Positions 219 to 35,990 of a DNA stretch of 64,000 nt are shown in pieces (the first letter of the stretch is position 1; each line of letters starts with the position of its first letter). A program made the position numbers and the translations under genes. The notes under the pieces are model-generated. The model had not been told where the DNA came from and searched no databases. It saw only the letters and a program-made list of their open reading frames with translations. This DNA is from Amoebidium appalachense (taxonomy: Eukaryota > Protista > Ichthyosporea), in the NCBI GenBank assembly GCA_963693365.1, contig CAVNZM010000011.1:8834664-8898663 (forward strand), in the 5' to 3' direction.

Positions 219-1724
219 ATGGCACACGGGCGAGGGAAGGATGTAGTGGAAAGATTTCCCGTGAAGCCGCGCTGCTTTTTCAGGTTCGTAAAGAAAAATG
301 CAGAACATTTTGTGGAAGAAACGCCGGTCTCCCCCAGCACTCAGACGTACGCATGGACACCGGAAAACGGTTGCCTCTCCCTCTCCCTGGAAAGCACAGA
401 ACCCGACACGATCCCGGTGTATCTTGCCTGTGTTAAACGTCTCCGGTTCGATGCGCAACAGGATGGCTACTCCGTGAATATCGAGTTCGAGAACCAAGAT
501 AGTCCTGGGATACGCACCTTCGACACAACTTACGATTCGGTTCGAAACTTCATGTTGGACAAGAGGGGCAATGCTTTCAAGGAGATCATGGTGAAGCACG
601 CCCCATACCAGATCGAGGAGTACAAAAAGAGTACCATCCCTGGGAACCCAACACCCCCATATTTGCAGGAGGATTCGGTAGCAGACCTCTTGTTTGACAA
701 ACTGTACCGCGGGGCCCAACAAATTTCGGGGTCCATAAAAGATTTGATAGGGGTAGGGTCTGTGTGGACTTCGCCTGCAGTAGAGGGGAGAACCAATACT
801 ATAGTAATGCTACAGACATATCTTCCGAAGTCCACAATTTTCGCCCCCGGAGAATTGCTCCGTACACAACCCAACAACGAGTCAATGACTGTCCAGCCAT
901 CGTTTAGGAATCTCAGGAACGATGGCTTCATGACCACCATATCGATGCCTAAATGGAAGTTCTTTTTTAGGAACGAACTCGCGACAATGTTGTTCCAATG
1001 GCTGACTGACCCCCAACGGGTGCCCTACTTTATTATATACACAGGTGAAGTGCACCATGCTTCTGTCATCATACTCGTTTCAGGTGACAAGTCGAGTATA
1101 GTTCTGGAGTTCTTCAATGTCCATGCCCCGAGTAGCACGTTGACAAAAGCCCTTGTCTCATTCATGAGAAGCGCTGATCCCACAGGCAAGCTGAAAGACA
1201 TACTTCGATCCCTCAAACCCGAAAGGGTTTGCACTGATTTGCAAAATCTTCATGGAAAAAGGACATTGTACGACGAATTGTTTGACAGAGACGAGGTGGT
1301 CGATGGGGCCTGTGCGTCTTGGTTGAGTATTTATATACTGCTGCGGACTTCACAAGCCGACTGGTCGTCCATACCGGGTGCGGATGGGCACACCATAGGC
1401 GAGCGGATCTGCAACTTCATCAAGACGAAAATCGCAAGGGATGGGGGATTCCAAGCGGTCTATAAGGTCGGGGGAACGATCGCGATGTACGGAAAGCGCC
1501 TGATCGAACTCTACGGGGCTAAGATGTATCAAACTGCGGATTGGTGGGCGCAAGACGGCGTCAATCAACAGGAGCGTTACCGAGAGGTCGTGGACATGGT
1601 GCTTTCCAAGAAAGTTCTCGTATTGACCGATGCCGAGCTTAAGGATGCAGGACTGCCAACACGCAAGGACGGCGAGAGACTTGTGAACGAGGTCCGAGAA
1701 CAAGCGGCGCGCCTCCTCCCCTGA
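219..1724 (+). CDS. Putative clan-CE-like (Ulp1/adenain-order) cysteine protease, paralog 1
   Basis: 501-aa ORF. HASVII...LEFFN...LQ...DGACASW gives the His, Glu/Asn, Gln, Cys order. Full-length similarity to 6546-8063. Confidence 0.6.
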   Translation: MAHGRGKDVVERFPVKPRCFFRFVKKNAEHFVEETPVSPSTQTYAWTPENGCLSLSLESTEPDTIPVYLACVKRLRFDAQQDGYSVNIEFENQDSPGIRTFDTTYDSVRNFMLDKRGNAFKEIMVKHAPYQIEEYKKSTIPGNPTPPYLQEDSVADLLFDKLYRGAQQISGSIKDLIGVGSVWTSPAVEGRTNTIVMLQTYLPKSTIFAPGELLRTQPNNESMTVQPSFRNLRNDGFMTTISMPKWKFFFRNELATMLFQWLTDPQRVPYFIIYTGEVHHASVIILVSGDKSSIVLEFFNVHAPSSTLTKALVSFMRSADPTGKLKDILRSLKPERVCTDLQNLHGKRTLYDELFDRDEVVDGACASWLSIYILLRTSQADWSSIPGADGHTIGERICNFIKTKIARDGGFQAVYKVGGTIAMYGKRLIELYGAKMYQTADWWAQDGVNQQERYREVVDMVLSKKVLVLTDAELKDAGLPTRKDGERLVNEVREQAARLLP

Positions 1725-5926: not shown

Positions 5927-6526
5927 ATGCGTGTGGCCGCCATCGACATCGGCTTCCTGAACCTGGTGGTGTGCGTGCTCAGCACGACCGACGACCCCGC
6001 CACGCCCTTCATCATCCACACGTGGGACCGCTGGCTCGTGGGCAACCCGGACACCACGGCCACGGTGCTGGTGGAGCTGCTGCTGCGCCGGCTGCACGAG
6101 GACCGCGCGCTGTTCGCGGACGTCGACATGGTCGTCATCGAGCGCCAGATGGTCACCAAGCTGAGCGTGCTGGCGCACGCGCTGCAGGCGTACTTCCTCA
6201 CCCTCAGATTGACCAATGGCCACGGGCCCGGCGTGGTGCTGCAGCACGGCACGCGCAAGAACCAGTGCGGGGCGTGGCTCGCCCGCCACGGAATGGCTCC
6301 TGCGGAGACGGGCAAGGCGGGGTATGCGGTGTACAAGCGGCGTGCGGTGGTCGACACGCAGCAAGCGCTCAAGCTGCAGAGTGAGCAGGGGTGGCGGGAC
6401 AAGTTTGGGCGGGAGGGCAAGAAGGACGACATGGCGGATGCGCTGCTGCACGGTCTGTGGTACCTGTTCTGTCGGAATCAGAAGGGGGGGGTCACGCTGA
6501 AAGAAGGCAGACAGTGTTCAAAATAA
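5927..6526 (+). CDS. RuvC-like Holliday junction resolvase (poxvirus A22 family)
   Basis: AIDIGFLNL, VVIERQ, YKRRAV and KKDDMADALL catalytic motifs. Confidence 0.9.
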   Translation: MRVAAIDIGFLNLVVCVLSTTDDPATPFIIHTWDRWLVGNPDTTATVLVELLLRRLHEDRALFADVDMVVIERQMVTKLSVLAHALQAYFLTLRLTNGHGPGVVLQHGTRKNQCGAWLARHGMAPAETGKAGYAVYKRRAVVDTQQALKLQSEQGWRDKFGREGKKDDMADALLHGLWYLFCRNQKGGVTLKEGRQCSK

Positions 6527-6545: not shown

Positions 6546-8063
6546 TCATGCGAGCACACTTGCATTCGGAGTTGTCGCTGCTGCTTTCGCGATGTCTTCC
6601 ACAAGCCGCTCTCCATCCCTGCGCCTCGGCAGTCCTGCGGCTTCAAGCTCGGCATCGGTCAACACGACCGTTTTCTTGGTTATTACCTCTCTTATTACCT
6701 GTGTGTACCGTGGGTCATCAAGATTCGGCTGCACCACATTTATCTCTCCTCCATGCATCTTAGCCCAGTAGAGTTCGGTCAGTTGCTTCCCGTACAGGGA
6801 CAGCACGGCCCCGATTTTGTAGACTGCCCGGAATCCTCTGTCCACCTTCTCAAGCTTTGTCGTTATATGATTGCAGACCCGTTCCCCAATGGTGTTTCCA
6901 TTGCCCGGTTGGGAACCCCAGTCGAAGCTTGACGTGCGCAGGAGTATGTAGACCATCAACCAGGAGGCACATGCCGAGTCGTGTATTTCGTTTCTATCGA
7001 CAAGTCCCTCATACAAAACCCTCCTAAAACTTGTCTGAAGGCTCTTACATACAGATTCGTGTTGGTAGGTGCGCAGAACTTTCGAGCTTCCAGTGTAACC
7101 GGCCCCCTCAAGGAACATACAGAGGGCGTCAGCGATTAGCCCTGCCGGGGCAGACATGTTAAAGCACTCGACCACCTTGACTTGCGAATCGATAATGACA
7201 ACAGAAGCATGCTCTGGGCTCGACACATGCATTATATAGTAGCGCTCACGTTCTTGGCTTTTCAGCCATGAAGAGAGGTTCGACACGAATGCTTTCGGGC
7301 ATCTGAAACCCCACTTTCCTGCTGACACCTTCCAAGTGGACATTTTACCATTGTCCGTCACAACACTGAGTGCTGGTGTGGACTTGGGGACAGCATCACT
7401 ATTATGCTCTATTTTGAGGGATGTGCCAGGGGAAAAACGAACAGATTTTGGCAGATAGGTTTGCAGCAGTACGAAGGTGTTGTCCCGAGACCTGGCGCCA
7501 CACCCTGCCACAGCCGGTGAGGCTTCAACGGAGCCAACCCCAATCAGCTCGGTCAGTGACTTCTGAAGATCAACGAGACCGTTGTACCAGTCAAATAGAA
7601 GTGGCCACGTTTTTTGTATGTCCTCCATCATGTCCGAGGGCGTAGGTCTTCCAGGGACAATAGCCTGTTTGTACTTTTCGGCCACGTAGGGAGCACACTT
7701 CACCACAATCGACCCGAAACGGTGCTTCCGCTGGTCCACGAGAAACCGGCTTTTTGAATCATACCTTACAGCAAACTTGTATTCCGTTCCAGCTGTTTGA
7801 CGCATACAAATAAACAACAATCTGTAGCCACCCAGCCCTGCTTCAAAAACCAGAGATGTAACACAGGTCAGACAGACTGGTTCGACATCATTTTGAGTGC
7901 TCCACAAGTTGATGGAGAGACAGACGTCCCCCATAGCCCACTTGTATGTCTGGGTGTTGCGGGGTTTCAGATGTGCGTCTTCCAACTTGAAATGTTGGGT
8001 ATTGCGTTTGACAAACTTGAAGAAGCAGTGGGGCTTTACCGACAATGTCTGTGTTAAAGCCAT
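6546..8063 (-). CDS. Putative clan-CE-like cysteine protease, paralog 2
   Basis: 505 aa; EHASVVIID...VECFN...LQ...DSACASW. Shares VKPxCFFxFVK, LQTYLPKS and LTDAELxxAGLPxRxDGERLV with 219-1724. Confidence 0.6.
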   Translation of the reverse strand: MALTQTLSVKPHCFFKFVKRNTQHFKLEDAHLKPRNTQTYKWAMGDVCLSINLWSTQNDVEPVCLTCVTSLVFEAGLGGYRLLFICMRQTAGTEYKFAVRYDSKSRFLVDQRKHRFGSIVVKCAPYVAEKYKQAIVPGRPTPSDMMEDIQKTWPLLFDWYNGLVDLQKSLTELIGVGSVEASPAVAGCGARSRDNTFVLLQTYLPKSVRFSPGTSLKIEHNSDAVPKSTPALSVVTDNGKMSTWKVSAGKWGFRCPKAFVSNLSSWLKSQERERYYIMHVSSPEHASVVIIDSQVKVVECFNMSAPAGLIADALCMFLEGAGYTGSSKVLRTYQHESVCKSLQTSFRRVLYEGLVDRNEIHDSACASWLMVYILLRTSSFDWGSQPGNGNTIGERVCNHITTKLEKVDRGFRAVYKIGAVLSLYGKQLTELYWAKMHGGEINVVQPNLDDPRYTQVIREVITKKTVVLTDAELEAAGLPRRRDGERLVEDIAKAAATTPNASVLA

Positions 8064-9926: not shown

Positions 9927-11114
9927 CTACTGCGCGTGCTCCTGGCTGGCTTTCTTGAACACGCTGATGACGAGGTCCCTTGTCAAGTCGTCTTCCATGT
10001 GCTCCCTCGCCATCTCCAGCATGGCCGCGGCAAAGGTCACAAAGTCCACACGGAACAGCTCGCGCTCAACGTTCTTGTGTTTAAGCGCGGTGTGCAGACA
10101 CTTCTCTGCAAGCGCCAGCTGCTCGGACGGCACGGGAAGCGCAAAGAGCAGGCGCTTGTTGGGCCCCACATGCCACGTACCGGCCTGCTTCATGCGGCCC
10201 TTCACGTCCTTCAGGCTCTGGCCGATCTTCAGACAGGGCGGGTCGCCATACTCGGACACAAACACGTAGATACCGGACTGCTGCTTGGTGCACACGTGGT
10301 TGGTGACCCGGCGCAGCTCATCACTGGCATCCTCGAATTCCGATGGAATTTGGTCCTGCTTGAGATTGTCTGTGGTCTGAAGTTCCAGAAGCCGACACTG
10401 CACCTCGAGTTTCAGGCGCTCCTCGCGAATCACACTTGCCCGCTTGTCACACAGAGCGCCTTCCTCGCGCATCATCATGATCTCCGTGTACTGAGCAGAT
10501 TCGGCGATGCGCGCCTCCTTGTACAGACTCAGTGCAGTTTCCATCTCGGCCTGGTTGGTCATGAATTGGGTGATGTCTCCGAGCTTCAGTCTCTTGGGCT
10601 CCCTCTCGGGGGTGCCGGCCGCACCCATTTCCCCCCTCACACTGTCGCGCATGAAAGCGTTGGGTCCTGACGGGTTGGCCGCTGCCGTGGCACTGTTGCG
10701 CTCAATGTCCTCCACGAGTGTTTCGTCTCCTCCTTCCAGGCGCGCTATATCTTGGGCCCACTTGTCAATGATCGCGGAACCATAGCGTGAGCCAGATGCA
10801 ATTTTTAGGGTTAGCCTACCCAGCGACTTAGCAGGCACACCAGGTGATGCCTTCCCTCCGACTTGAAATTGACAGTTGGTCACATTAAGAGAATCTTTGA
10901 GTTGAGGGTTTTTCTGCAAGAGACGGCGCAGATAGCAACCCGCTGCGTCTCTATCCAAACCGCGGACAAGCATGGTATAGTCCACCAAGCTTGCCATCTT
11001 CACACCGTCGACCTCACATACTCGAATGGCATAGTCGCCAATGCCAATACATTCGCCTTTTTCAGCGACAATCTCGTCTCCGGTCATTACGACTTCGTTG
11101 TGTTCAGTTTCCAT
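9927..11114 (-). CDS. Bro/KilA-like N-terminal domain plus T5orf172 (GIY-YIG-like) domain protein
   Basis: MASLVD...RLEGGDETLVEDIERN at the N-terminus; GIYVF...LKIGQS...RMKQ...AEKCLH...RELF at the C-terminus. Start reassigned to ATG 11114, just downstream of a TATA box. Confidence 0.8.
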   Translation of the reverse strand: METEHNEVVMTGDEIVAEKGECIGIGDYAIRVCEVDGVKMASLVDYTMLVRGLDRDAAGCYLRRLLQKNPQLKDSLNVTNCQFQVGGKASPGVPAKSLGRLTLKIASGSRYGSAIIDKWAQDIARLEGGDETLVEDIERNSATAAANPSGPNAFMRDSVRGEMGAAGTPEREPKRLKLGDITQFMTNQAEMETALSLYKEARIAESAQYTEIMMMREEGALCDKRASVIREERLKLEVQCRLLELQTTDNLKQDQIPSEFEDASDELRRVTNHVCTKQQSGIYVFVSEYGDPPCLKIGQSLKDVKGRMKQAGTWHVGPNKRLLFALPVPSEQLALAEKCLHTALKHKNVERELFRVDFVTFAAAMLEMAREHMEDDLTRDLVISVFKKASQEHAQ

Positions 11115-11195: not shown

Positions 11196-11420
11196 CAGGG
11201 GAGGTGGGGGGTGGGAGGGGCTGGGGGTGGCTGGGGGTGCCTCGTCTGCCTCGCATGCCTCGCATGCCTCGCGCGCAGAACGGTGTGTGCGCCGTGTGCG
11301 CGTGTGCCCGTGTGCCTCGCACGCCTCGCGTGCCTCGCGGGGTGTGTTCGTGCTTCCTTTATTGTTCCTCGTGTGCCCCCCACAGCCACCCCCAGCCACC
11401 CAGGGCCCGGTGGGGGGGGG
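11196..11420. repeat. Intergenic foldback repeat, copy A
   Basis: 15-bp inverted ends GGCTGGGGGTGGCTG (11219-11233) and CAGCCACCCCCAGCC (11383-11397); TGCCTCGC units; minus-strand AATAAA at 11358-11363. Confidence 0.85.
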
Positions 11421-11457: not shown

Positions 11458-12435
11458 ATGCATATTATGGAAATGCATGGCGCAGACCTCGCATACACAA
11501 AAGTTGTTCAAAAGTACTCGCGTGCGGATGGTCAGAGGGACTTTGCGGGTCTTGTGCGCTGGACCCCACCACCCCTCCGAAAAGGATCACCAACTACGCA
11601 AAGCAGAGTCGGCCTGAAGGCGGCAGACGTCTACCTCGCCAAACACCGCTTCAGGGCTTCCCGTTACCACAAGGGGGGTACACCCCGTCCCAGTGTCTAT
11701 GACTGTTTGCGCACCAGGGAGGGTAGAGCAAGCCTGCTCAAGGCACAGGCCAGAAATCCAGGCCGTCACATCCAAAATGCAGCCTCCATAAACTTTGGCG
11801 TGCCTGGTCAGTTCAAGCCTGCTGTTGTCAAGCAGCTCTACTCCACCTACTGTCTCAAGGGACGCGTCCTCGACCCATGCATGGGGTGGGGCAACCGTCT
11901 GCTGGCAGCCCTGGCCAGCCCACACGTCACACACTACTACGGTGTCGACAGCAACGTCGACATGGCAGGTGCCTACCGGGATCTGCTGGCAGCATACAAC
12001 ACCGCAGGCAAGCGCGGGGCACAAGCGCTCCACGTGGATACAAAGTGGGCCCCGTTCGAGGCCGCGGCCGTGCACGGCAAGTTCGACTGCGCCTTCACGA
12101 GTCCACCATACTACAAAATAGAGTGCTACGCAAACATGCCAGCCTACTGCGACTACGAAGACTGGTGGGCCAGGTTCTACATCCCCATGCTTGAAAAGGT
12201 CGTGGCGCACATGGACGCGGATGGCTTTGTCCTCATCAACATACGCCAGAGCATCACCGAAAGGAGGATGTGCAGGCACATGGCAGGCCTGGGCTGGCCC
12301 CTGTACACCAAACACCGCATGCCCATAGCCGTCCGGCCCGGCTCAGGGGTTGCTGGTAGGCTGGACTACGAGCCCATCTACGTGTTCAGGAGAAAGGGTG
12401 CCGTGTCAACTCCAGGCCGCCACACGACCAAATAA
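11458..12435 (+). CDS. Amino (N4-C/N6-A) DNA methyltransferase
   Basis: Motif I VLDPCMGWG, then YYGVD, then motif IV FTSPPYY. Confidence 0.88.
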   Translation: MHIMEMHGADLAYTKVVQKYSRADGQRDFAGLVRWTPPPLRKGSPTTQSRVGLKAADVYLAKHRFRASRYHKGGTPRPSVYDCLRTREGRASLLKAQARNPGRHIQNAASINFGVPGQFKPAVVKQLYSTYCLKGRVLDPCMGWGNRLLAALASPHVTHYYGVDSNVDMAGAYRDLLAAYNTAGKRGAQALHVDTKWAPFEAAAVHGKFDCAFTSPPYYKIECYANMPAYCDYEDWWARFYIPMLEKVVAHMDADGFVLINIRQSITERRMCRHMAGLGWPLYTKHRMPIAVRPGSGVAGRLDYEPIYVFRRKGAVSTPGRHTTK

Positions 12436-12494: not shown

Positions 12495-12625
12495 TGTGTG
12501 GTGTGTGCGTGTGCCCGTGTGCCTCGCCTGCCTCGCGCCGGGTGTGTTCGTGCTTCCTTTATTGTTCCTCGTGTGCCCCCCACAGCCCCCCACAGCCACC
12601 CCCAGCCACCCGCGCCCCGGGGAGG
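12495..12625. repeat. Intergenic repeat, copy B (right half only)
   Basis: 12541-12587 is identical to 11341-11387. Confidence 0.85.
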
Positions 12626-12635
12626 TGTCACGCCA

Positions 12636-13049
12636 TCAACGCCCGGACTTCCGAGCCTCTGGCGCAGCGGCGGGTGCCGTGTGCACGGGTGGGGGGGCAC
12701 TGTGGGGCCCAACTGGAAACAGCCCGTACAGGATGTCCTCCTCGCACGTCACCATGATCTCGTGCTTGTCCATGATCCTCATGGCGTGCGCGATGGTTTC
12801 GGCGGGCACGGGCGGGCCGTGGTTGAACAGGTGCACGCGCATCTCCTTGTCGGGGTGGAAGTGGTGGTTCGCCAGCACGTTCGCCATGGCGGTCTTCCAG
12901 TCGGCCAGCTGCTCGACCTGGACGATCTGGTGGTCCGTCAGCACGTCGATGCGCCCGACCTTGGTGAGCGTGTCCTCGACGCCTTCCAGCCGGTCGGCCA
13001 GCTCGTATACGACCATGTTCCGTGCGAACTCAAGCTCGGTGTCCGTCAT
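12636..13049 (-). CDS. PD-(D/E)xK nuclease paralog, probably catalytically inactive
   Basis: GRIDVLTD is retained, but IEVK is replaced by VQVE and GQ by AN. Confidence 0.7.
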   Translation of the reverse strand: MTDTELEFARNMVVYELADRLEGVEDTLTKVGRIDVLTDHQIVQVEQLADWKTAMANVLANHHFHPDKEMRVHLFNHGPPVPAETIAHAMRIMDKHEIMVTCEEDILYGLFPVGPHSAPPPVHTAPAAAPEARKSGR

Positions 13050-13154
13050 CACATACCGCACACATAAAATTCGCGTGCCGCCCCAACCGGGTTACCCATT
13101 GACAATCACACATCGCACTTTCGACCTTGTGTGTGCGCCCGACAATGTTGCGGC

Positions 13155-13470
13155 GCGTGGGGGGCTGGGGGGGGCTGGGCGGGGCTGGGGGTGGCTGGGG
13201 GCGCGGGTGCCTCGCGTGCCTCGCGTGCCTCGCGCGCAGAACAGTGTCTGTGGGCGCCCTGAGTGCTGTGTATGCCCGTGTGTGCGCGTGCGCGGGTGCC
13301 GCGCGCGCGGGTGGTTCCTTTATTGGTCCTTGTGTGCCCCCCACAGCCACCCCCAGCCACCCAGGGCCCCCGGGGGAGGGGTGCTCACCCCTCGCATGCC
13401 TCACATGCCTCGCATCCCTCGTGTGCCTCGTGTGCCTCGCGTGCCTCGCCCGCCTCGCGGGGTGGGGTGT
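13155..13470. repeat. Intergenic foldback repeat, copy C
   Basis: Same 15-bp inverted ends (13183-13197 and 13344-13358), TGCCTCGC arrays, minus-strand AATAAA at 13319-13324. Confidence 0.85.
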
Positions 13471-13502: not shown

Positions 13503-14170
13503 CTAATTTGCCATGATCTTGCTATACACTATCTTGTGGGCACGGGTGTGTCTGCCAGGTTTCCCTATAGAGACACGCTCTCCTGCGGGAACAAACGACG
13601 ACCCGCCCAAAACCCGTGTCAGCACCGTTCCCAGTCTCTTGATCCCCACCTCGCAATCGTCCAACATATTTATATCAGCCCATTGTCGCATGCAACCGGC
13701 CATCCCCGATGTCGTAACCCAGGTCCCATTCTCGATACCAAAGCTGTGTGTTCCGCGTGCGCCTGTCGCTATGTCCTTTAGAAAGTGTATTTCGTTCGAC
13801 TCCTGTGCCCTCTCCGTTGGTTTTGTCCGGGTTGTGCAGATGTCCCCGTGACACCCCCAAATTAGCCGCAGAGTGTCGGGCTCCACCGTCACAAATACCC
13901 CAAGAGATTCTAAGGTCTCAACGGCAACCCTATAAACCTCGATGGATGCGTAACCAAACAGGTGCACACGAGCCTGTCGACCAGGGTAGAAGCGTTGGTA
14001 CGCCTGCACCTGTCCAAGCGCCGCCTTCCACTGCGCCACACGCTTGACCTCGATGACCTGCGTGTCCGTGAGTATGTCGATTCGGCCGGCTGGCGTGACC
14101 ACTTCGCACTTCCCCCCTCAATCCTGGCTAACCGATCTCTGACCGACGCTTCATCATACGATGCCATCAT
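13503..14170 (-). CDS. PD-(D/E)xK nuclease fused to a copy of the helicase C-terminal domain (1-nt frameshift near 14112-14117)
   Basis: MMASYDEASVRDRLARIEGG, then EVVTPAGRIDILTDTQVIEVK...WKAALGQ in the next frame. The last ~95 aa align with the C-terminus of 14617-16674. Confidence 0.8.
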
Positions 14171-14221
14171 AATAGGGTACCAAAAAAAACACGACTCATT
14201 TTTATATTATAAGCCAGTCCG

Positions 14222-14600
14222 GGTGTTATGAATCCGATATAACACCAATCACAACAAAACCACCGACACACCACCAACCTACCCAAGTTACCACCAACCT
14301 ACCAACAGTAATCGCGATTTCGATTAGTAGAATTAGACCCAAACGTCGATTTCACTTATAAATAGTAGGTTGGGTAGGTTCAGTGGGTTGTTTTGGGGTT
14401 GAGTCGAGCTGGGGCAAAAACAAACGAACACCAACGATGTGTGTTTGGGGGGACCCCTCCGAGAACCTACCCAACCTACCGAAGTTACCAAAACCCCCAA
14501 CAACCAATGAAATACGCCCGTTAAACCAAGAAACCAATCGGATGGCTTTGTTAAAACGTTTGCGCAAAACCCAAGCTACCACCAAGTGGCCGAAGTTACT
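14222..14600. other. Iteron-like spacer (candidate replication origin)
   Basis: Six AACCTAC copies; perfect 17-bp inverted repeat (14365-14381 and 14463-14479); CCACCAACCTACC direct repeat at 14271 and 14291; GGTGTTAT/ATAACACC hairpin at 14222-14246. Confidence 0.45.
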
Positions 14601-14616
14601 GAAAGGAAGCTGGCGA

Positions 14617-16674
14617 TCACTTATGCGAAAGTATCTTCGAGAACGAAACTCGATAAGCACGCGATGTCTTTGACACTGCCCCCACTGCCACCGATTCGCG
14701 TAGCGGCACATGCAGCGCCTCTCCAAACACCTGTGTCAGCGTCGATCCCAACCTCTTGATGCCCACCACCCGCCGACTGTCGAGCATGTTGGCGTCCGCC
14801 CACATTCGCATCCGTTCAGCCATGCCAGTGGCTGTTACCCAGCACCCATCCGCGATTCCGAAGTCTTGTGTTCCGTCAGCTCCTTGGGCGATGTCCCTCA
14901 GAAATTGTATTTCTAGCGGCAGACTCTTCTCCATGAGCTGTTGCTTGAGCTTAGTATGGGGGGGCGGCGGCATTGTCTTAGGGACATCGGGAAGGTCCAG
15001 GAAGAAGTGGAACAGAGCCTCCAGCACCTCCGGTTGCCGGTGAAATCTGACGAACTCGTCGAAGTACCGGAGCTGACCCACCCGAGAGCCGTTTGCCTCG
15101 AGACATATGAATCTCCGATCGGATAGCTCCACACGAACGGGCCAATCTTCGTTTGACAGAAAGACGTAGCGCTCGAAGTTTTTGGTGTAGATGCCATCCA
15201 CACCCTTCTTCTCCAAAAGGCTGTCTTCTTGTGTGATCAGACTTTTGATAAGGTTGTTGGCCTCGTGGCACCCACCAAAGACACACTCGTCGATAACAGC
15301 TAGTAGTTTGTGGTTGAGGTGGGAGTTGAACTTGCTGGATATGTGTTCCTTGTTCTTCACGTAAGCGTAGTATTCCGAGCCTACCAGCGCCTTGAGTACG
15401 TCGAAGAACACATTTTTCCCGGTTCCCTGGACTGACTTGACGAGTACCGCCGTCCCAGACTTGGTGTCGGGGTGCTGGAAAATCTGGGCAACCCACTTGA
15501 GAAGGTATTCAAATACCTCGGCGTTTCCATCGGCAAGCACCTCGAATGCGTGGCGTATGAACATCTCGATCCCGCCATATTCCCGTACACGGTACTTCTC
15601 GAGGAGCTCATCCGGCATGACCACAACCTTCTGGCCAGGATGGTAGGGGGTCATCGGGCATTCTGGGCCCATGTAACGGAATCCCTCAGTGTACTTGATG
15701 GGGAAGCCGCGAAAGAAGTTATATGTGAACAGGGCTCCTTGGCGGTACTTGGGGTTTATCTCTCCTGTCTTGGGATTGGGCGACGCGGGGTCGAAGACTG
15801 CTTGCCCATAACGAGGAACGTGGCGTCCCATAAGGAAATCAATGCCGGTGTACGTCCGCTTGATTTCACCACCCTCACCCTCCATCCACTCAACCACGAA
15901 ACCCTGCATGGTGCATTTCATGTCCTTCTCGGTCAACGTCTTGAGTGTGTACACGCCCTTGTCATGGCACCACACCTTCAAGAGGTAGAGGGATGTGCCG
16001 TTGATTTTTCCCACCCACTTCTGCAGGTACTCGACGAGCTCAGCTTCCTTCCAGGTGGTTGGTAGCAGGTCCGGCATGAACTCGTATCCACCCGGAGGGT
16101 CGGTCGACTCTTGCTCAAGAACGCGGATCACCTCCTCGATGAGAGTCTGCCGCTTCCGGTCCTTGTTTGCAACCACGGCGGGGGCGGCTGCTGTACTAGG
16201 TGCTGTGCCGAATGTGGTCGTATGGGGCCCCTGGGTCCAACGCGTCGCGGTCGTCCAGTCGAGAATCGGGTTCATTACTACCCTGTTGGCCAAAGGAAAT
16301 TTCTCCTTGGCCCATGACTTGAGCGCAGCTCTGTTAGGCCCGGGAGCTGGGTGGCGGGTGTTGCACTCGTAGTGTGCGGTCTTGTGGCGCTTGGACTGAC
16401 GGGTGGTTATTTCGGCATAAACCAGTCCAAACTGTCGCTTGAGGGAATTGTGGAGGTCGTTGTGATCGAAGGGCTCATTGTCCACCGTAACTTCCCGGGA
16501 CCCCTGTGGTGCAAAGACTGCGAGGTACCAGTCAGGACAGGCACTGCGGCGCGAGAGCCCTTGGTTTGCCTGCTTGGGTTGATCTGCACCCTCGCAGCAA
16601 ACCTCGTATTCGGTCTTCTCCGTATCCTTGCCGTCGCACCGGGCAGTGTTCATGTTTGAGCGAATGACATCCAT
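14617..16674 (-). CDS. Superfamily 3 helicase (D5/NrS-1 helicase-like)
   Basis: LLKWVAQIFQHP, Walker A QGTGKN, Walker B AVIDE, motif C FLSN, SDRRF arginine finger. Start reassigned to ATG 16674. Confidence 0.9.
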   Translation of the reverse strand: MDVIRSNMNTARCDGKDTEKTEYEVCCEGADQPKQANQGLSRRSACPDWYLAVFAPQGSREVTVDNEPFDHNDLHNSLKRQFGLVYAEITTRQSKRHKTAHYECNTRHPAPGPNRAALKSWAKEKFPLANRVVMNPILDWTTATRWTQGPHTTTFGTAPSTAAAPAVVANKDRKRQTLIEEVIRVLEQESTDPPGGYEFMPDLLPTTWKEAELVEYLQKWVGKINGTSLYLLKVWCHDKGVYTLKTLTEKDMKCTMQGFVVEWMEGEGGEIKRTYTGIDFLMGRHVPRYGQAVFDPASPNPKTGEINPKYRQGALFTYNFFRGFPIKYTEGFRYMGPECPMTPYHPGQKVVVMPDELLEKYRVREYGGIEMFIRHAFEVLADGNAEVFEYLLKWVAQIFQHPDTKSGTAVLVKSVQGTGKNVFFDVLKALVGSEYYAYVKNKEHISSKFNSHLNHKLLAVIDECVFGGCHEANNLIKSLITQEDSLLEKKGVDGIYTKNFERYVFLSNEDWPVRVELSDRRFICLEANGSRVGQLRYFDEFVRFHRQPEVLEALFHFFLDLPDVPKTMPPPPHTKLKQQLMEKSLPLEIQFLRDIAQGADGTQDFGIADGCWVTATGMAERMRMWADANMLDSRRVVGIKRLGSTLTQVFGEALHVPLRESVAVGAVSKTSRAYRVSFSKILSHK

Positions 16675-16726: not shown

Positions 16727-16750
16727 CTTTTATACCTTCGGGCTGGGCAC
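16727..16750 (-). promoter_or_regulatory. Conserved promoter, copy 3
   Basis: GTGCCCAGCCCGAAGGTATAAAAG about 55 bp upstream of helicase ATG 16674. Differs from copy 2 at two positions. Confidence 0.65.
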
Positions 16751-17185
16751 AAGACTGGGGTGTTCAGTCTCAACGTGCCTGTTCAGGGTTGTAGACCAGG
16801 CAAATGCAGCCTGGCACTGGTCGAAGGGGCATGTAAAACGCCCGCTTGCGCGCCGGGGCCGTCTCGGCAGCTGACACCCTTCATGAGCTGTTCGTCGGTG
16901 AACCCACAAACCCGCAGGATAGACGTAAGTGGCTGGACAGTCTGGGCATTGATAGGGTCGGCTGCCAGAGTGTGTGCGCTGGTGCAGTTTCATGTGGTCG
17001 CTGCGGGCAAAGCTTGCAAAGCAGCCGGGTTGTGGACAGGCATATGCGCCGGTGCTATTATTCTTGTGGGTATTTTCGTGTCTTTTTAGATTTGCCTTGA
17101 ATGTGAACATTGCTGAACACAGTGTGCAAGCGTGGCGCTTCGGGTTAGGGGGTGTCTCTATGGTTGGCGTGTATTGGAGGTCCAT
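16730..17185 (-). CDS. C2H2 zinc finger protein (4 fingers)
   Basis: CTLC..F..KANLKRH...H; CPQPGC..F.RSDHMKLHQRTHSGSRPYQCPDC; CPFDQC...H. Start at ATG 17185. Confidence 0.85.
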   Translation of the reverse strand: MDLQYTPTIETPPNPKRHACTLCSAMFTFKANLKRHENTHKNNSTGAYACPQPGCFASFARSDHMKLHQRTHSGSRPYQCPDCPATYVYPAGLWVHRRTAHEGCQLPRRPRRASGRFTCPFDQCQAAFAWSTTLNRHVETEHPSLVPSPKV

Positions 17186-17277: not shown

Positions 17278-17432
17278 ATGGCCACCTACAACGAGGCGTT
17301 TGTCAGCGACAAATTGGCACGGATTGAAGGTGGGAAACGCGAAGTGGTGACCCCCGCGGGCCGCATCGACCTGCTCACAGACACGGACATCATCGAGGTC
17401 AAGCGCGCACCGCAGTGGAAGGCCGCACTGCG
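17278..17432 (+). pseudogene. 3'-truncated PD-(D/E)xK nuclease paralog
   Basis: MATYNEAFVSDKLARIEGGKREVVTPAGRIDLLTDTDIIEVKRAPQWKAAL, then an abrupt switch into tandem repeats. Confidence 0.8.
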
Positions 17433-17975: not shown

Positions 17976-18158
17976 TTGACAGGAGTCCCAATTGTTGGGG
18001 ATGACCGGCTGGCTACCACCCCAGCACGTGCTTCTCCAGGAAGCGCACGAGGTACACCTTGACCGGGTGCAGGCAAAGACGTAAAAGATGAAAAATAAAT
18101 AGAGAAGCCACGGGCAAGAGGGTGGGAAGCCCCCCTCCCCAAAAAACAAAACAAAGAG

Positions 18159-18273
18159 CGCCCGGTGATAGCGCTCATGACACATCTCTCCAAGAACACA
18201 TGTGCAAGCGCACGGTGATTGCGCTCATGACCCTACACTCAAACAACACAGGTGCAAGCACACGCATTGCCCC

Positions 18274-18324
<51 letters not shown>

Positions 18325-18443
18325 AAAGCGCCCGGTGATAGCGCTCATGACACATCTCTCCAAGAACACATGTGCAAGCGCATGGTGATTGCGCTCATGA
18401 CCCTACACTCAAACAACACAGGTGCAAGCACACGCATTGCCCC

Positions 18444-18502
<59 letters not shown>

Positions 18503-18621
18503 AAAGCGCCCGGTGATAGCGCTCATGACACATCTCTCCAAGAACACATGTGCAAGCGCACGGTGATTGCGCTCATGACCCTACACTCAAACAACACAGG
18601 TGCAAGCACACGCATTGCCCC

Positions 18622-18684
<63 letters not shown>

Positions 18685-18803
18685 AAAGCGCCCGGTGATA
18701 GCGCTCATGACACATCTCTCCAAGAACACATGTGCAAGCGCACGGTGATTGCGCTCATGACCCTACACTCAAACAACACAGGTGCAAGCACACGCATTGC
18801 CCC

Positions 18804-18860
<57 letters not shown>

Positions 18861-19550
18861 ACAAAGCGCCCGGTGATAGCGCTCATGACACATCTCTCCA
18901 AGAACACATGTGCAAGCGCACGGTGATTGCGCTCATGACCCTACACTCAAACAACACAGGTGCAAGCACACGCATTGCCCCTCCCCCCCCCCCCCCCCCC
19001 CCCCCCTTCCCCCCTCCCCCCCCCCTCCCCCCCCACCCCCCCCCCCACCCCCACAGCACACCCACAAAGCCCCCGGTGATAGCGCTCATGCCTCAGCTCT
19101 CACACAACACATGTGGAAGCGCCCGGTGATAGCGCTCATGCCTCAGCTCTCACACAACACATGTGGAAGCGCCCGGTGATAGCACACTTTGCATCCCCCT
19201 CCCCCCCCACACACAAAGGCATTCGGGCACACACATGCACACTTTGCATCCCCCCCCCCCACACACACAAAGGCATTCGGGCACACACATGCACACTTTG
19301 CATCCCCCCCCCCCCACACACAAAGGCATTCGGGCACACACATGCACACTTTGCATCCCCCCTCCCCCCCCCCCCCCCCACAATCCCCCTCCCCCCACAC
19401 ACACACAAAGGCATTCGGGCACACACATGCACACTTTGCATCCCCCCCCCCCCCCCACAGGCACGGGCCCACACATGCCCCCTTTGCATCCCCCCCCCCA
19501 CACACAAAGGCATTCGGGCACACACATGCACACTTTGCATCCCCCTCCAC
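18159..19550 (+). repeat. ~180-bp tandem array built from 50-bp subunits and poly-C, followed by a ~60-bp array
   Basis: CGGTGAT(T/A)GCGCTCATGA... subunits, about 5 higher-order copies; CAAAGGCATTCGGGCACACACATGCACACTTTGCATCCC repeated over 19180-19550. Confidence 0.9.
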
Positions 19551-19655
19551 CCCCTTCGTGAGAATGCACTGAGTGTCACATATTTATAATATGTTGAATT
19601 TTATTGATTGTGAAAAAGCACGAAGTCGCCTACCCTAGTAATATGGTGATACCGA

Positions 19656-21520
19656 TCAGTCAGGCCATTGATCGTAAAAAGGCACGAAGTCGCCTGGCCT
19701 GCTGGTAATATGGTGATACCGATCACAGTCAGGCCAAAGTTCATCCCATGTGTTGGTTGCTGCTTCATAATACAACCAGTGGTCGTATGGTTCACCAACT
19801 ACTTGCACATGGTGATTCCTGATGGCATCCTCGAGGACTATCTGACACGGCAGTTGCGGGTACCAATCCGCACCATCCAAAACCTCGGCGATAGGAACAG
19901 CACTCCACAGGGCATCCGCGCTGGGAGACGTGTCAGGCTGGCCCGTGGTCTTGTTAATACCGATATAGCTGCCGCGCTGTTGTTCCAAATGGTCGGAGGG
20001 GGTTTGTACCCAAAATAACTCGATGTCTGCCTGCCAGGGGCAGACGCCGTCGGCATCGTTGAGCATGATTTGGTCAAATCCACTCGGGGGGTAGATGACG
20101 GCCGCTTGCCGGGTTTCGGTGTCGTAAGCATACAACCCGTCAACAACGAATGGCAAATCTCTACCTTGCCCCTCCGCTTTGGCTGTTTTGAACTCTTCGC
20201 GCTCAACATCTTTCCTGATTGTGTCAATGAAGTCTCCCCAATCGAAGGGAAGCACCATGACGTGTCGTTTGTTCATGACGTCCACAAGCATCTGCCACGA
20301 CACGCCCACTTGCAGACGCCGCATGTATGTGGAAATTTCGACGGTTTCGATGTCGGTATCGATCTGGCCCAGGGGAACAAACTCGCCTTCTTCCTGCCCT
20401 TCCTGAATCTCGTAAGCAAACCACCCCGTGCACCGCCCGAATATGTTTTTGCGCTCGGCAGGCCCACCCTCGCTGTAATCCGCCTGGACCCTGCTAACTA
20501 AATTCGAAAGCTTTTTGTCCCATTCCAGCTTGTGTCTAATGATGTTTGCGTAGTCGTACAGGTGGGCTTGGGTACGGGGTGCAGTTGTAACTGGCGGGTT
20601 TGAGGCAGCTTGTGCCAAAATATTGGCCTTTTGGGTGGCCATATCTAGTATTATATTCGCATGGACATCGTCGTAGCCGTCGTCGTCGTGGTCCCTCCGG
20701 TGGGCATAATGGTCCATCAATCGCAGCAGCAAACACGTGTTAAACGACTCTAACGTATACGCAGAGCTGTCTAACTTGACAACTCCTGCAGACCCTCGCA
20801 ACCACGCAGTGCACGGCGGGTAATGCCGCAGTTTGCCGTCCCCCGTGTACCCCTCACTGGGGTGTGTCTCTACGATCCTTCTAATAGCATCCTCAGGTCC
20901 GGAAGTAAACCCCACCAGTTCCAGAACCTACTATCCTGAAAATCACTGTTATTCTCTATGGCGTATTGGACATCCGCCAAAGTGGAGGTTGCAAAAAACA
21001 TATCGGCAAAGCTCTCGCTCGTTTTTTGGTCCAGTTCGGACATTTTTGCCGCAATCTCTGCTGCTGTGGCCTGCATCACCGTCCTAGTTGCAAGGCAACA
21101 GCGCCCTTCAGGGTTGTACACGGCCAGCTTGTCATAGCTTCGGAGGTACACCGCTGTGCATGCACGGAAACCTGCTTTCAACTCTTCCTGCAGTTGCAAT
21201 AGACTCAACGAGGTGTCTACCTCAAACACAACAAAAGGGTGCAACGTTTCCACTAGAGTGACATCTTCGGGGGTTGAAACCGTGGCAAGGCCGTTGGTGT
21301 TTGCAAGAGAAAACACTACAACATCTTCCCCTACAGGGCCTAACAACAGCGGTGTCTTCGATGGAACGATCCGAACACGCACTGGCATTGAGGGTGCAAG
21401 TCCCATTGCTGACAGCGAAATAATAATTCTGCCTATACCCTGCATGCCAAATCCTGTTGTGTTTTCGTGCAGCTGAGGTCGGTGTATTTGAAACGATTTG
21501 GATATAATAACATCAGTCAT
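19656..21520 (-). CDS. Hypothetical protein(s): ORFs 20870-21520 and 19656-20915, probably one spliced or frameshifted gene
   Basis: Two overlapping non-repetitive ORFs (216 and 419 aa); the second lacks an ATG at its start. A CCAAT-rich region lies upstream at 21525-21625. Confidence 0.55.
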
Positions 21521-21873
21521 CGCGCTGATTGGCTAAACGCGGATGACACATCTTTTAACGGATGATTGGTTGGATAAATCTAGTTACCATCGGCTAGCCG
21601 CGCTGATTGGCCAAATCCAATTGGTGTTGCTTCGGCATAACCCGTGCGCAAGCCCGAAAATTCGGATTTGTTTCTTGGTATTTTTTGAAGTCCGGAATAT
21701 TTTTGCCTGGGGTGTATGGTATTTTTCATCCCCAGTTAAAGGGGGTGAAAGGGGGTTCCTATTTTAGCTTACCACGAAATTTGCAGGGGTTTACCATAAA
21801 CTGAAAATATGATGGTATTTTTGAAACGTTTAGGGTATTTTTTACCGTAAAAACGGGGTTATGGTCGGGCCTG

Positions 21874-22172
21874 CCCGTGCGCTTGCACCTGTGTTGCTTG
21901 AGAGTAGGGTCATGAGCGCTATCACCGTGCGCTTGCACCTGTGTTGCTTGAGAGTAGGGTCATGAGCGCTATCACCGTGCGCTTGCACCTGTTTTTGGGG
22001 TTGTCCCCGCTTGCACCTGTGTTGTTGGCGAGTAGGGTCATGAGCGCTATCACCGTGCGCTTGCACCTGTGTTGCTTGAGAGTAGGGTCATGAGCGCTAT
22101 CACCGTGCGCTTGCACCTGTGTTGTTGGCGAGTAGGGTCATGATCGCTATCACCATACCCTTGCTCATGAGC
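21874..22172 (-). repeat. 50-bp tandem array, inverted relative to 18159-19185
   Basis: CCGTGCGCTTGCACCTGTGTTGCTTGAGAGTAGGGTCATGAGCGCTATCA is the reverse complement of the 18.2-kb subunit. Confidence 0.9.
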
Positions 22173-24315: not shown

Positions 24316-27300
24316 GTGTTTGTTTGTTTTTTTTTTTTTTTTTTTTTTTTTTTTGGGGGGGGGGGGGAGGGGGGGGAGGGGGTTACCTTGAAAACGTGTT
24401 TCCTGTCAGTGTAGCCACACGTGCATGCCGGGGGGGGGCTTCTTGCCAGCGACCACAAGCCAGTTGACCGTGGCAAAATTTACCGCCTCGGCCAAGCTGC
24501 TACCAGTAGCATACCCAAAGTGGTATGCCCCAGGCAATGTGTAGATGACCTCGCCGGCCTGCTGAACCGTGTGCTGCACAGGAACACCCTTCTTCATCAA
24601 GTAACGGGGGTGGATGAACACAGACTGTCCCACCCACATGTTAGTCATATGAAAAACCGGGTGGTCGTTTTTGTAAGTGCTTTTTTGTTTTTTGTTCTTC
24701 ACGTCATTCACGTCAGTGTCTACCACTCCCTCTCTCTCTCTCTTCTTGTAGTCCTCTGTTGTGTGTGTGGTCGTTTTTTTTTTTTTTTTTTTTTTTTTTG
24801 GGGGGGGGGGGGGTGGTGAGGGATTACCTTATGCTGTGTGACTTTCTTGCAGATACCGGCCCCCGAAAGGCCAAGCCTCTTGTAGATATCCTCGAGGATA
24901 GACGTGACCTGTCCATTGTACTCTGCACTGATTATATACCAGCTTTTGTCTCCGGGCCCACGGGTCATGATGTTGACACTTCCGAGCAGACCGTCTTCTG
25001 TGTGGGGCACAAACGGAGACCCCGTCGTGACACTGCAAGGAGGCATGTGATTGGGGTTAAAACAATAATTAGTTCCGACTTCGATGTGATCCAATACATT
25101 CCGAGAAGACCTGACCCATACACATACACCCAGGATGGTTCTGTGAACAAAAGGGGCATTCTGCAAACCTGCCTTTTTTTCCCTTTGTTGTTTGTTGTTG
25201 TGTTTTTTTTTTTTTGGGGGGGGGGGGGGAAGGGGTGGGGGGGCATACTTATAGAGCATCGGTGTTGAGATGCCCTCACAGTTCTGGAACTCTCTCGATA
25301 CAATCGAGCCCAGCGTCTCCAAGCTGAACATGTAGTCGATTTCTTCCCTCACTACCTGTACACACACCACATTGCATCAACACAACATACACTCTCCGCA
25401 CAAACACACGCACACACCCATGCCTACACAACATGCACTCTCTGCTGCACAAACACACGCACACACCCATGCCTACACAACATGCACCCTCTGCTGCACA
25501 CACACGAATACACCCATGCCTATACAACATGCACCCTCTGCTGCACACACACGAATACACCCATGCCTACACAACATGCACCCTCTGCTGCACACACACG
25601 AATACACCCATGCCTACACAACATGCACCCTCTGCTGCACACACACGAATACACCCATGCCTATACAACATGCACCCTCTGCTGCACACACACGAATACA
25701 CCCATGCCTACACAACATGCACCCTCTGCTGCACACACACGAATACACCCATGCCTACAGAATACACCCATGCCTTCACAACATGCACCCTCTGCTGCAC
25801 ACACACGAATACACCCATGCCTACAGAATACACCCATGCCTTCACAACATGCACCCTCTGCTGCACACACACGAATACACCCATGCCTACAGAATACACC
25901 CATGCCTTCACAACATGCACCCTCTGCTGCACACACACGAATACACCCATGCCTACACAACATGCACCCTCTGCTGCACACACACGAATACACCCATGCC
26001 TTCACAACATGCACCCTCTGCTGCACACACACGAATACACCCATGCCTACACAACATGCACCCTCTGCTGCACACACACGAATACACCCATGCCTACACA
26101 ACATGCACCCTCTGCTGCACACACACGAATACACCCATGCCTTCACAACATGCACCCTCTGCTGCACACACACGAATACACCCATGCCTACACAACATGC
26201 ACCCTCTGCTGCACACACACGAATACACCCATGCCTACACAACATGCACCCTCTGCTGCACACACACGAATACACCCATGCCTTCACAACATGCACCCTC
26301 TGCTGCACACACACGAATACACCCATGCCTACACAACATGCACCCTCTGCTGCACACACACGAATACACCCATGCCTACACAACATGCACCCTCTGCTGC
26401 ACACACACGAATACACCCATGCCTTCACAACATGCACCCTCTGCTGCACACACACGAATACACCCATGCCTTCACAACATGCACCCTCTGCTGCACACAC
26501 ACGAATACACCCATGCCTACACAACATGCACCCTCTGCTGCACACACACGAATACACCCATGCCTACACAACATGCACCCTCAGCTGCACACACACGAAT
26601 ACACCCATGCCTACACAACATGCACCCTCTGCTGCACACACACGAATACACCCATGCCTTCACAACATGCACCCTCTGCTGCACACACACGAATACACCC
26701 ATGCCTTCACAACATGCACCCTCTGCTGCACACACACGAATACACCCATGCCTACACAACATGCACCCTCAGCTGCACACACACGAATACACCCATGCCT
26801 ACACAACATGCACCCTCTGCACAAACACACGCACATACACACACATGACACACACGTACCTCACTGGGTGTATGGGTGTTTTTAAGAGGTGTCAGATCCG
26901 TTCCGTAAAAGAACATTTTACTGTAAGTTTCCGGTATGCAGTCCAATTGCCCCCAGAACTCCTCCTCATCCAACGGGTCCCCCTGCTCAATCGTGTTAGC
27001 TCCTGTTCACGGTAACCATACCCTAATGGTTGCAAATACGCACCTCTGGAATTTGCTCTTTGATGTCGTCCCTATAAACGAGGAAGACATCCTTGATGGC
27101 GGTAGCCTCCAGACAGATCTTGGTGTAGGATTTTCTCACTGGTGTGGCCCAAGCAGCCTCTTTCAGCCCCTGCACTACCGGTTCGGGAAGCATGAACTTG
27201 ACGGCACCAGCTGCCCGAACCTCGTGTCGTTTTTCCATTACCCTAACTATCGTCTCAAATGAGAGCTTTTCTAACTGCAGTTGGCTGAGATGTTTCACGG

Positions 27301-35561: not shown

Positions 35562-35990
35562 TTAGAACCTAGGCATGACCAGTGCCGTGAAGCCTTCTCT
35601 GTTGAGTTCCAATTGGCCGTCGCTGTTGATCTGTGTGAGCCAGATGACTTCCATCCCACACTGGGCACTCACGTGGATGCCATGCAGAATGAAGCCATCC
35701 ACAATGCTCTTAATCTTTGCTGCTTTTGGAAACTCGTTACCATAAAAGTGCACACGTGTCTGGTGCATGGGATAGCTCAGACGGTAGAACACTATCTGGC
35801 CCATTGCTGTCTTGTATAGGTTCCATGACTTAACTTCAATCAGCTCGGTAGCTGTAAGTATATCAATTCGCCCGTGTATTGTATTAACTTCAACAGTACC
35901 ATCAAGCTTATCAGCAAGCATGTCACGCACCACTTTCTCTACACTTCCATTGCGCCGTGCTACATGAACAAATGGTCTTAACTCAGCCAT
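35562..35990 (-). CDS. Stand-alone PD-(D/E)xK nuclease paralog
   Basis: EKVVRDMLA...EVNTIHGRIDILTATELIEVKSWNLYKTAMGQIVFY with catalytic residues intact. Confidence 0.8.
   Translation of the reverse strand: MAELRPFVHVARRNGSVEKVVRDMLADKLDGTVEVNTIHGRIDILTATELIEVKSWNLYKTAMGQIVFYRLSYPMHQTRVHFYGNEFPKAAKIKSIVDGFILHGIHVSAQCGMEVIWLTQINSDGQLELNREGFTALVMPRF

Follow-up and report, generated by a model that had tools for sequence, protein, structure and literature searches.

A nuclease joined to a copied helicase tail beside an origin-like spacer in Amoebidium appalachense, and its possible action on related replication origins

Introduction

How might a nuclease come to recognize the replication origin of another replicon? 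The closest described case is Odn (Gp88) of phage ICP1, in which a T5orf172 nuclease is joined to a domain 42% identical to RepA_N of the PLE, and for which iterons are needed for cutting (Barth, Nguyen and Seed 2021, PMC8263062). The second point of comparison is the Staphylococcus aureus pathogenicity islands (SaPIs), whose origins contain 6-12 short iterons right downstream of rep, with two or more flanking an AT-rich region on either side in opposite directions, and whose iterons are bound by the C-terminal winged helix of Rep (PMC9371898). The closest structural homologue of PriRep5 is NrS-1 (PMC9371898, PMC4889955). Here we describe a gene from a 64,000-nucleotide stretch of the genome of Amoebidium appalachense (Ichthyosporea; GenBank assembly GCA_963693365.1, contig CAVNZM010000011.1, positions 8,834,664 to 8,898,663, forward strand), hereafter the window. 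In this gene a PD-(D/E)xK-like nuclease domain is followed by a copy of the C-terminal tail of the initiator-helicase encoded beside it, and the two genes are separated by an origin-like spacer. A preliminary description of the locus knew of no described system with this arrangement; that claim falls, because Odn already joins a nuclease to a copied initiator origin-binding domain (PMC8263062). Among the papers listed in the literature searched, origin-directed nucleases appear only in the Vibrio conflict of phage and satellite, that of Vibrio cholerae and its phage ICP1, and the term was not found in the giant-virus papers listed.

Results

A helicase tail copied onto a nuclease

The genes and domains concerned are these:

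13503..14170, minus strand: nuclease-tail fusion gene, start ATG at 14170, frame broken at about 14111-14117 in the assembly
13503-14102, minus strand: nuclease open reading frame (ORF) as open in the assembly
13884..14170, minus strand: PD-(D/E)xK-like nuclease domain, whose D, ExK and QxxxY motifs are intact in the alignment
13506..13793, minus strand: tail copy on the nuclease, 96 aa, 53% identical to the helicase tail
14617..16674, minus strand: 685-aa initiator-helicase, with HUH-type origin-binding domain, middle domain, NrS-1-like superfamily 3 (SF3) ATPase and C-terminal tail
14620..14913, minus strand: helicase C-terminal tail, 98 aa, a predicted winged helix by AlphaFold2 (AF2) topology, grouping with the nuclease tail in trees

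Residues 104-199 of the nuclease ORF align with residues 588-684 of the helicase, with 51 of 97 columns identical (53%; BLASTP E 4e-30), and the DNA identity of the two tails (141/209, 67%) begins at the first codon of the domain. The C-terminus of the nuclease is thus a copy of that of the helicase, as had been noticed at the outset. For the tail pair dN is 0.42 and dS 1.54, giving a ratio of 0.27 (Nei-Gojobori; bootstrap range 0-0.51) that averages over both branches, and tails mutated neutrally to the matching protein identity were free of stop codons in just 189 of 2000 cases. Judged by these comparisons the tail graft is kept under selection, and the original impression of two diverged yet open domains is borne out.

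The placement of the first domain among PD-(D/E)xK nucleases stands as far as the motifs go: the aspartate is invariant and the glutamate and lysine nearly invariant in the nuclease alignment, and all are present in the window copy. Profiles did not bear it out for the window sequence itself, which has no nuclease match in Pfam or PHROG profile searches; PDDEXK_9 is matched weakly in three of 22 family members, and one relative (L054) among 53 IMG/VR ORFs passes its cut-off (28.4 bits vs 25.5). A single-sequence structure model of the nuclease has a confidence (pLDDT) of 51, and fold searches were uninformative.

Eight sequencing runs were compared at the frame break, of which seven cover it; X20 has no cover there, and its matches to repeats (45-74 nt) were disregarded. 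Contigs of five runs from five samples (X1, X2, X14, X17, X19) join both nuclease frames, and the two runs of one sample, S3 (X8 and X11), match the broken frame of the window. Five of the six samples that cover the place thus have an open frame, and the lesion belongs to some copies, not to the family. Sister helicases in the same samples show about 86-88% DNA identity over the compared pieces (14894-16619), and their alignment breaks off after the sixth tail codon, which marks the tail as the variable part of the helicase. Eleven residues of one sister tail are visible, with nine matches to the nuclease tail vs seven to the window helicase by hand count, and 10 residues of another give seven vs six. 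Over these 10-11 residues there is a hint that sister helicase tails may be closer to the nuclease tail than is that of the window helicase.

The tail was expected from D5/P4-alpha-type helicases to be a winged helix. The AF2 model predicts the order helix-strand-helix-helix-strand-strand, with a pLDDT of 60-86 per block, and a language-model search (Atlas) matches the nuclease tail at 0.94 to clusters with Pox_D5 (PF03288) in 17-18% of members. The predicted winged helix is therefore based on topology and language-model match, without a profile or fold match. Searches for Pox_D5 and the tail in two virus records found nothing and were uninformative.

Repeated capture of helicase tails

The idea of a one-off fusion was overturned by an unseeded search of 1.84 billion representative proteins with a profile of the tail (A2), at a threshold of E<=1e-3. 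Its 13 matches are six helicases or helicase ends (P0021, P0024, P0030, P0032, P0034, P0035), five nuclease-tail fusions (P0031, P0033, P0040, P0036 with an incomplete nuclease part, and P0039 with the tail first and the nuclease last), one zinc-finger protein with a tail (P0037, an Amoebidium parasiticum transcript with a C2H2 zinc finger) and one tail fragment (P0038). Word-seeded searches had missed the fusions: the full ORF gave 20 matches on the nuclease domain only, and the tail profile at longer lengths gave four helicases only. The catalytic motifs are intact in all six fusion nuclease domains that were aligned.

Nuclease domains are 45-56% identical between fusion groups, and the corresponding tails just 16-30%. 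The nearest helicase differs from tail to tail: it is the neighbour for the window (53%), P0023 for P0031 (49%) and P0034 for P0033 and P0041 (47 and 45%). A tail tree of 20 rows, from which the near-duplicates P0028 and P0043 were excluded, groups the window tail with its neighbour (94/92), P0031 with P0023 (99/97), and P0033, P0041, P0036 and P0039 with P0034 (96/97), leaving P0040 unplaced; a single clade of all seven nuclease tails is rejected (difference in log-likelihood 119.6, approximately unbiased (AU) test p 1.6e-80). As the nuclease tails are scattered and the nuclease domains stay alike, there were at least three tail captures. In a smaller tree of seven rows a mixture model does not resolve the window pair, and LG+G4 supports it (92.9/83) with the alternatives rejected at p<0.01. 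Whole-tail swapping was not seen among five helicases, whose tail and ATPase trees share their unrooted shape and differ in rates alone.

It had been suggested that other fusions be sought beside their cognate helicases. The five further fusions are those of the profile search, and one linked pair besides that of the window was found: P0041 (GHT06_003768, in the cluster of P0033) and the helicase P0022 (GHT06_003767) have consecutive locus tags and are both listed with a 183,011-bp contig. The linked tail, however, is nearer to another helicase than to its own neighbour (45% identity to P0034, 33% to P0022), and its clade with the neighbour is marginally rejected (p 0.0496). For P0032 as for P0033 the longest contig listed measures 3198 bp; if they share one contig, an identical nuclease domain (100%) would stand beside two helicases that are 34% alike. 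P0022, P0041 and P0030 are annotated in Daphnia assemblies, namely Daphnia sinensis (the 183-kb contig) and Daphnia pulex (a 1.2-kb contig), and may be viral contigs from an associated protist; nothing on a viral or protist origin of these relatives was found in the literature searched. The tail alignment found close relatives with context in none of 29 viral-contig and none of 131 metagenome-contig stretches, and the helicase alignments found three distant viral loci in 65 stretches, none in 162 metagenome stretches and four distant bacterial loci in 47.

The initiator-helicase and the candidate origin

Two further features belong to the replication gene and the spacer:

16195..16542, minus strand: N-terminal HUH-fold domain (about aa 45-160), with a fold like the SV40 T antigen and papillomavirus E1 origin-binding domains (AF2 model, structure comparison)
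14276..14480, no strand: candidate replication origin, with six AACCTAC repeats (+14276, +14296, -14365, -14374, +14464, +14473), AT-rich core 14304-14363 and 17-bp inverted repeat

The helicase was initially assigned to the D5/P4-alpha type, and the SF3 ATPase of that assignment is confirmed: Walker A (aa 417), Walker B (aa 460) and the sensor (aa 506) are conserved in seven of seven rows. In other respects the protein departs from it, being NrS-1-like (DUF5906, E 3e-20; NrS-1 structure 6k9e, E 3.5e-17) and having an HUH-type N-terminus in place of a primase. No primase domain was found in the N-terminus, where aa 45-160 fold as the HUH type and PHROG primase profiles match only aa 288-656. 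The HUH-fold domain is predicted to be catalytically inactive: the HUH motif is complete in three of six rows and reads H-x-E in the other three, the window among them, and the presumed place of motif III, the catalytic tyrosine, is occupied by tryptophan in six of six, the column assignment itself being inferred. An architecture of HUH fold, NrS-1-type SF3 ATPase and tail was not found in the literature searched.

The spacer, 446 bases from helicase stop to nuclease start and directly downstream of the helicase gene, had already been called iteron-like, and rightly. The sequence AACCTACC has five exact copies in the 64 kb, all within 14276-14480, and the 7-mer AACCTAC has eight copies in the window, of which six lie in the spacer in the order plus, plus, AT core, minus, minus, plus, plus. 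When the 450-nt spacer was shuffled with its dinucleotides preserved, six of 1000 sequences reached a top 8-mer count of five. The last two repeat pairs are linked by a perfect 17-bp inverted repeat (14365-14381 / 14463-14479), and the core (14304-14363) is 67% AT, a value reached by 0.5% of the 60-nt windows in 8.9-17.9 kb. The folding z-score of the spacer is -2.18 (three of 100 shuffles were equally good). At the level of pattern, then, an AT-rich core with short repeats of opposite orientation about it lies downstream of the helicase gene, and by analogy with SaPI origins, whose layout it matches, the spacer is a putative replication origin.

Other copies of the nuclease module and the genomic setting

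The window contains four copies of the nuclease module, the fusion and three more, which are given here with the remaining genes:

5927-6526: A22-type resolvase, weak match
9927-11114: T5orf172 protein, a gene separate from the nuclease-tail fusion
11458..12435, plus strand: amino-DNA methyltransferase-like gene (N6_N4_Mtase E 0.009, below cut-off; phrog_67 E 8e-4)
12636..13049, minus strand: nuclease-domain paralogue without tail (tblastn E 8e-16), ExK and QxxxY lost
16730-17185: C2H2 zinc-finger gene directly upstream of the helicase gene
17278..17427, plus strand: second nuclease paralogue, shortened in the assembly copy and longer in other copies, 80% complementary over 102 nt to 14017-14118
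24720-25331, minus strand: JmjC-like ORF (E 0.004)
35562-35990, minus strand: stand-alone nuclease module with intact motifs, 18 kb from the viral stretch and adjoining a LINE element

The paralogue at 12636..13049 is, from its motifs, likely inactive, and at the one at 17278..17427 contigs have loose ends at 17426 in X1, X2 and X8. Elsewhere the module is found in 53 IMG/VR ORFs, 19 with KilA-N, four with Rha, one with Bro-N and 29 without a named partner. These fusions of large DNA viruses and phages have the same nuclease domain (37-67% identity over best segments) and exchangeable DNA-binding domains, but they carry the DNA-binding domain at the N-terminus, and it is no copy of a replicase part. 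None of 51 nuclease loci has a tail of the window type or a related helicase nearby. A restriction-modification pairing of the nuclease with the nearby methyltransferase is unsupported, with no match among the ORFs of 54 loci, 51 of which are the nuclease loci.

The window is eukaryotic. From about 18 kb onward it is rich in microsatellites and includes a LINE reverse transcriptase (37910-41104); the 18 kb before that are compact, nearly free of microsatellites and carry virus-like genes, several of whose matches fall below Pfam cut-offs. The element is probably an endogenous virus, Nucleocytoviricota-like, with Amoebidium or another protist as host. It shares with the giant endogenous viral elements of Amoebidium (Sarre et al. 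2024, PMC11244446) an intron-poor stretch of viral genes within a repeat-rich eukaryotic genome, a JmjC gene and an A22 resolvase; among viral insertions of Amoebidium, JmjC is reported to be the most enriched domain (PMC11244446). Unlike those elements, the window has no capsid (MCP), A32 ATPase or VLTF3 marker among the ORFs scanned. The domain names searched for were not found in the supplementary text of Sarre et al. 2024, whose figures and tables may list such genes.

Three kinds of repeated sequence were also observed. Tandem 9-bp repeats with a conserved core make up a GC-rich block that is present in three places (11200-11420, 12500-12620, 13150-13460; 79% over 225 nt). In contigs of other copies this block is connected to sequence upstream of the helicase, with joints at 16750 and 16632; it is possibly a shared promoter-type module. 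For the block behind the nuclease the idea of a displaced second origin was dropped, as there are three copies, two of them upstream of other genes. Two tandem arrays, one of about 178 bp (18100-19100) and one of 50 bp (21830-22170), have inverted 109-nt arms in common (89%), and the arrays at 18100-22154 flank, in a transposon-like manner, two ORFs without known family (19656-20717, 20870-21520). Two 500-aa paralogues in inverted orientation (219-1724, plus strand; 6546-8063, minus strand) are 44% identical and have no Pfam or PHROG match.

Discussion

The nuclease is conserved, it has repeatedly taken up the domain that varies most in one helicase family, and its gene has such helicases and an origin-like spacer as neighbours. 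For these reasons we think it somewhat probable, at a little over an even chance, that the fusion gene encodes an origin-directed nuclease whose action is between related replicons, through exclusion or through homing. The predicted PD-(D/E)xK cutter, which is presumably active, would be guided by the copied tail to the repeats of a related replication origin, probably that of a sister replicon, and would cleave there; the tail, by analogy with SaPI Rep and P4 alpha, would contact the repeats as a winged helix. A cut in the origin of a co-resident relative could result in its exclusion, or the block of tail, origin and nuclease could be copied in during repair, which would be homing. The element's own origin might escape because the tail has diverged (at 47% of residues), because the element's helicase occupies it, or because it is methylated. 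Repeated re-copying of tails is the expected product of tracking a changing sequence specificity. Further support comes from the recurring linkage of nuclease and helicase, the SaPI-like layout of the spacer, the precedent of Odn, and the module's usual place behind a DNA-binding domain in the IMG/VR ORFs. The preliminary description proposed an origin-targeted nuclease for initiation, concatemer resolution, excision or exclusion; origin targeting is still the best reading. In the P0041 pair the tail resembles a different helicase more than the one beside it, and this speaks for exclusion or homing rather than for initiation or resolution. In a bolder form, which we consider possible but doubtful, a family of eukaryotic-virus replicons would use an undescribed initiator that combines a T-antigen-like dead HUH domain, an NrS-1-type helicase, a fast-changing tail and a SaPI-like origin behind the gene, and its companion nuclease would re-copy sister tails, cut sister origins and spread tail-origin blocks among co-infecting or endogenous viruses, an origin-homing arms race within a protist genome.

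Several observations count against an origin-directed nuclease. The nearest known relative of the window nuclease tail is the tail of its own neighbour, which would imply self-cutting, and the tail also occurs without a nuclease on the zinc-finger protein P0037. The branch of the nuclease tail is about twice that of the helicase tail (0.53 vs 0.25), and the dN/dS ratio averages the two. The tail has no Pfam match at E<=1 and no PDB sequence match, its comparison with distant helicase tails by HH-align gave a probability of 0.1, which is not significant, and in structure searches the fold lists were dominated by other domains. The tail also need not be the iteron reader, because the helicase carries a second candidate origin-binding domain at its N-terminus, and the T-antigen-like fold modelled there could be the true one. 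Finally, binding, cutting, target and self-protection are all steps that we infer from sequence.

Of the other explanations, the nuclease as a helper for the element's own replication has a low probability in our view. It would bind the element's origin and, replacing the inactivated HUH domain, supply the regulated nicking or cutting that initiation, resolution or excision calls for. The HUH domain does lack its presumed catalytic tyrosine, the window tail is closest to that of its neighbour (53%), seven identical positions lead into the presumed recognition helix, and linkage of nuclease and helicase is seen twice. The second linked tail, however, mismatches its neighbour (33% vs 45%), initiators of the T-antigen/E1 type function with an inactivated endonuclease domain (PMC4889955), a broken copy exists in one sample and the assembly, and an essential partner would be expected to co-descend, yet this one was re-made at least three times. 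Just as improbable, we think, is an accessory shuffled protein or regulator, in which a small promiscuous nuclease-fold module has joined a nearby DNA-binding domain and acts through loose binding, as a repressor or in copy-number control, without origin-specific cutting. Such shuffling is suggested by KilA-N, Rha or Bro-N in 24 of 53 viral homologues, by MarR-like helix-turn-helix domains on some bacterial homologues, by the four module copies in the window, one with its motifs lost, and by the tail on a zinc-finger protein; it does not sit well with intact catalytic motifs in the six aligned fusion nuclease domains or with tails taken repeatedly from one small helicase family, in both domain orders.

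A role of the tail in protein docking seems very unlikely. The copy would pair with the helicase tail, and either recruit the nuclease to the fork or block the helicase as a dominant-negative. The precedent is phage P4, where winged-helix proteins control the origin-binding domain of alpha by forming homo- and heterodimers, with Cnr as the partner in the heterodimer. This dimerisation is reportedly the subject of Yeo et al. 2002. Docking would need a match to the cognate helicase, and the second linked pair is without it. We give least credence to an insertion leftover, a mobile nuclease that displaced or duplicated the tail at the 3' end of the helicase gene and left a dead or decaying chimera. 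The frame break in the assembly and sample S3, the longer branch of the nuclease copy and its nuclease-first order, unusual for the module, would fit such a relic, but the frame is open in most covering samples, dN/dS stays at or below 0.51 in the bootstrap, few neutral tails remain stop-free, and five further fusion clusters largely refute it.

Weighed against these, an origin-directed nuclease would, if true, extend the origin-directed strategy to viruses of eukaryotes, to another nuclease class and to repeated independent capture of the targeting domain. The locus would also provide a giant-virus-like element with a candidate replication origin of 200 bp, and its initiator would unite in a single protein the origin-binding solutions of the papova and D5 types.

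How does the locus compare with described systems? Mriyaviruses likewise have RuvC, SF3 helicase, HUH and PDDEXK genes of their own, but their HUH proteins stand separate and keep their catalytic motifs (PMC11253617). Compared with SV40 large T antigen and papillomavirus E1 (PMC4889955), the window helicase differs in being of the NrS-1/D5 type (DUF5906), in its C-terminal tail and in its giant-virus-like neighbourhood. SaPI Rep/PriRep and phage P4 alpha (PMC9371898, PMC4889955) are self-loading helicase-initiators with a C-terminal winged helix for short iterons, which is predicted here too, and SaPI iterons likewise lie just downstream of the gene and flank an AT-rich core in opposite orientation; the window helicase differs in lacking a primase, in the HUH-type origin-binding fold at its N-terminus and in the tail-copy nuclease that follows the origin. 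The closest parallel is Odn (PMC8263062), from which the principle is already known, the function here being predicted. Both combine a mobile nuclease domain with a copied initiator DNA-binding domain (42% identity there, 53% here), both have an iteron-bearing origin as target, shown for Odn and presumed here, and in both the specificity domain is swapped or changes fast among replicons. By sequence the window fusion is no Odn orthologue, as both domains differ: Odn unites T5orf172/GIY-YIG with RepA_N in a contest of phage and satellite, whereas here the partners are a PD-(D/E)xK-like domain and an SF3 helicase's C-terminal tail. The virus is an endogenous one of a eukaryote, the gene stands beside the helicase and an origin-like spacer, a replicon of the presumed target kind, and there were at least three captures.

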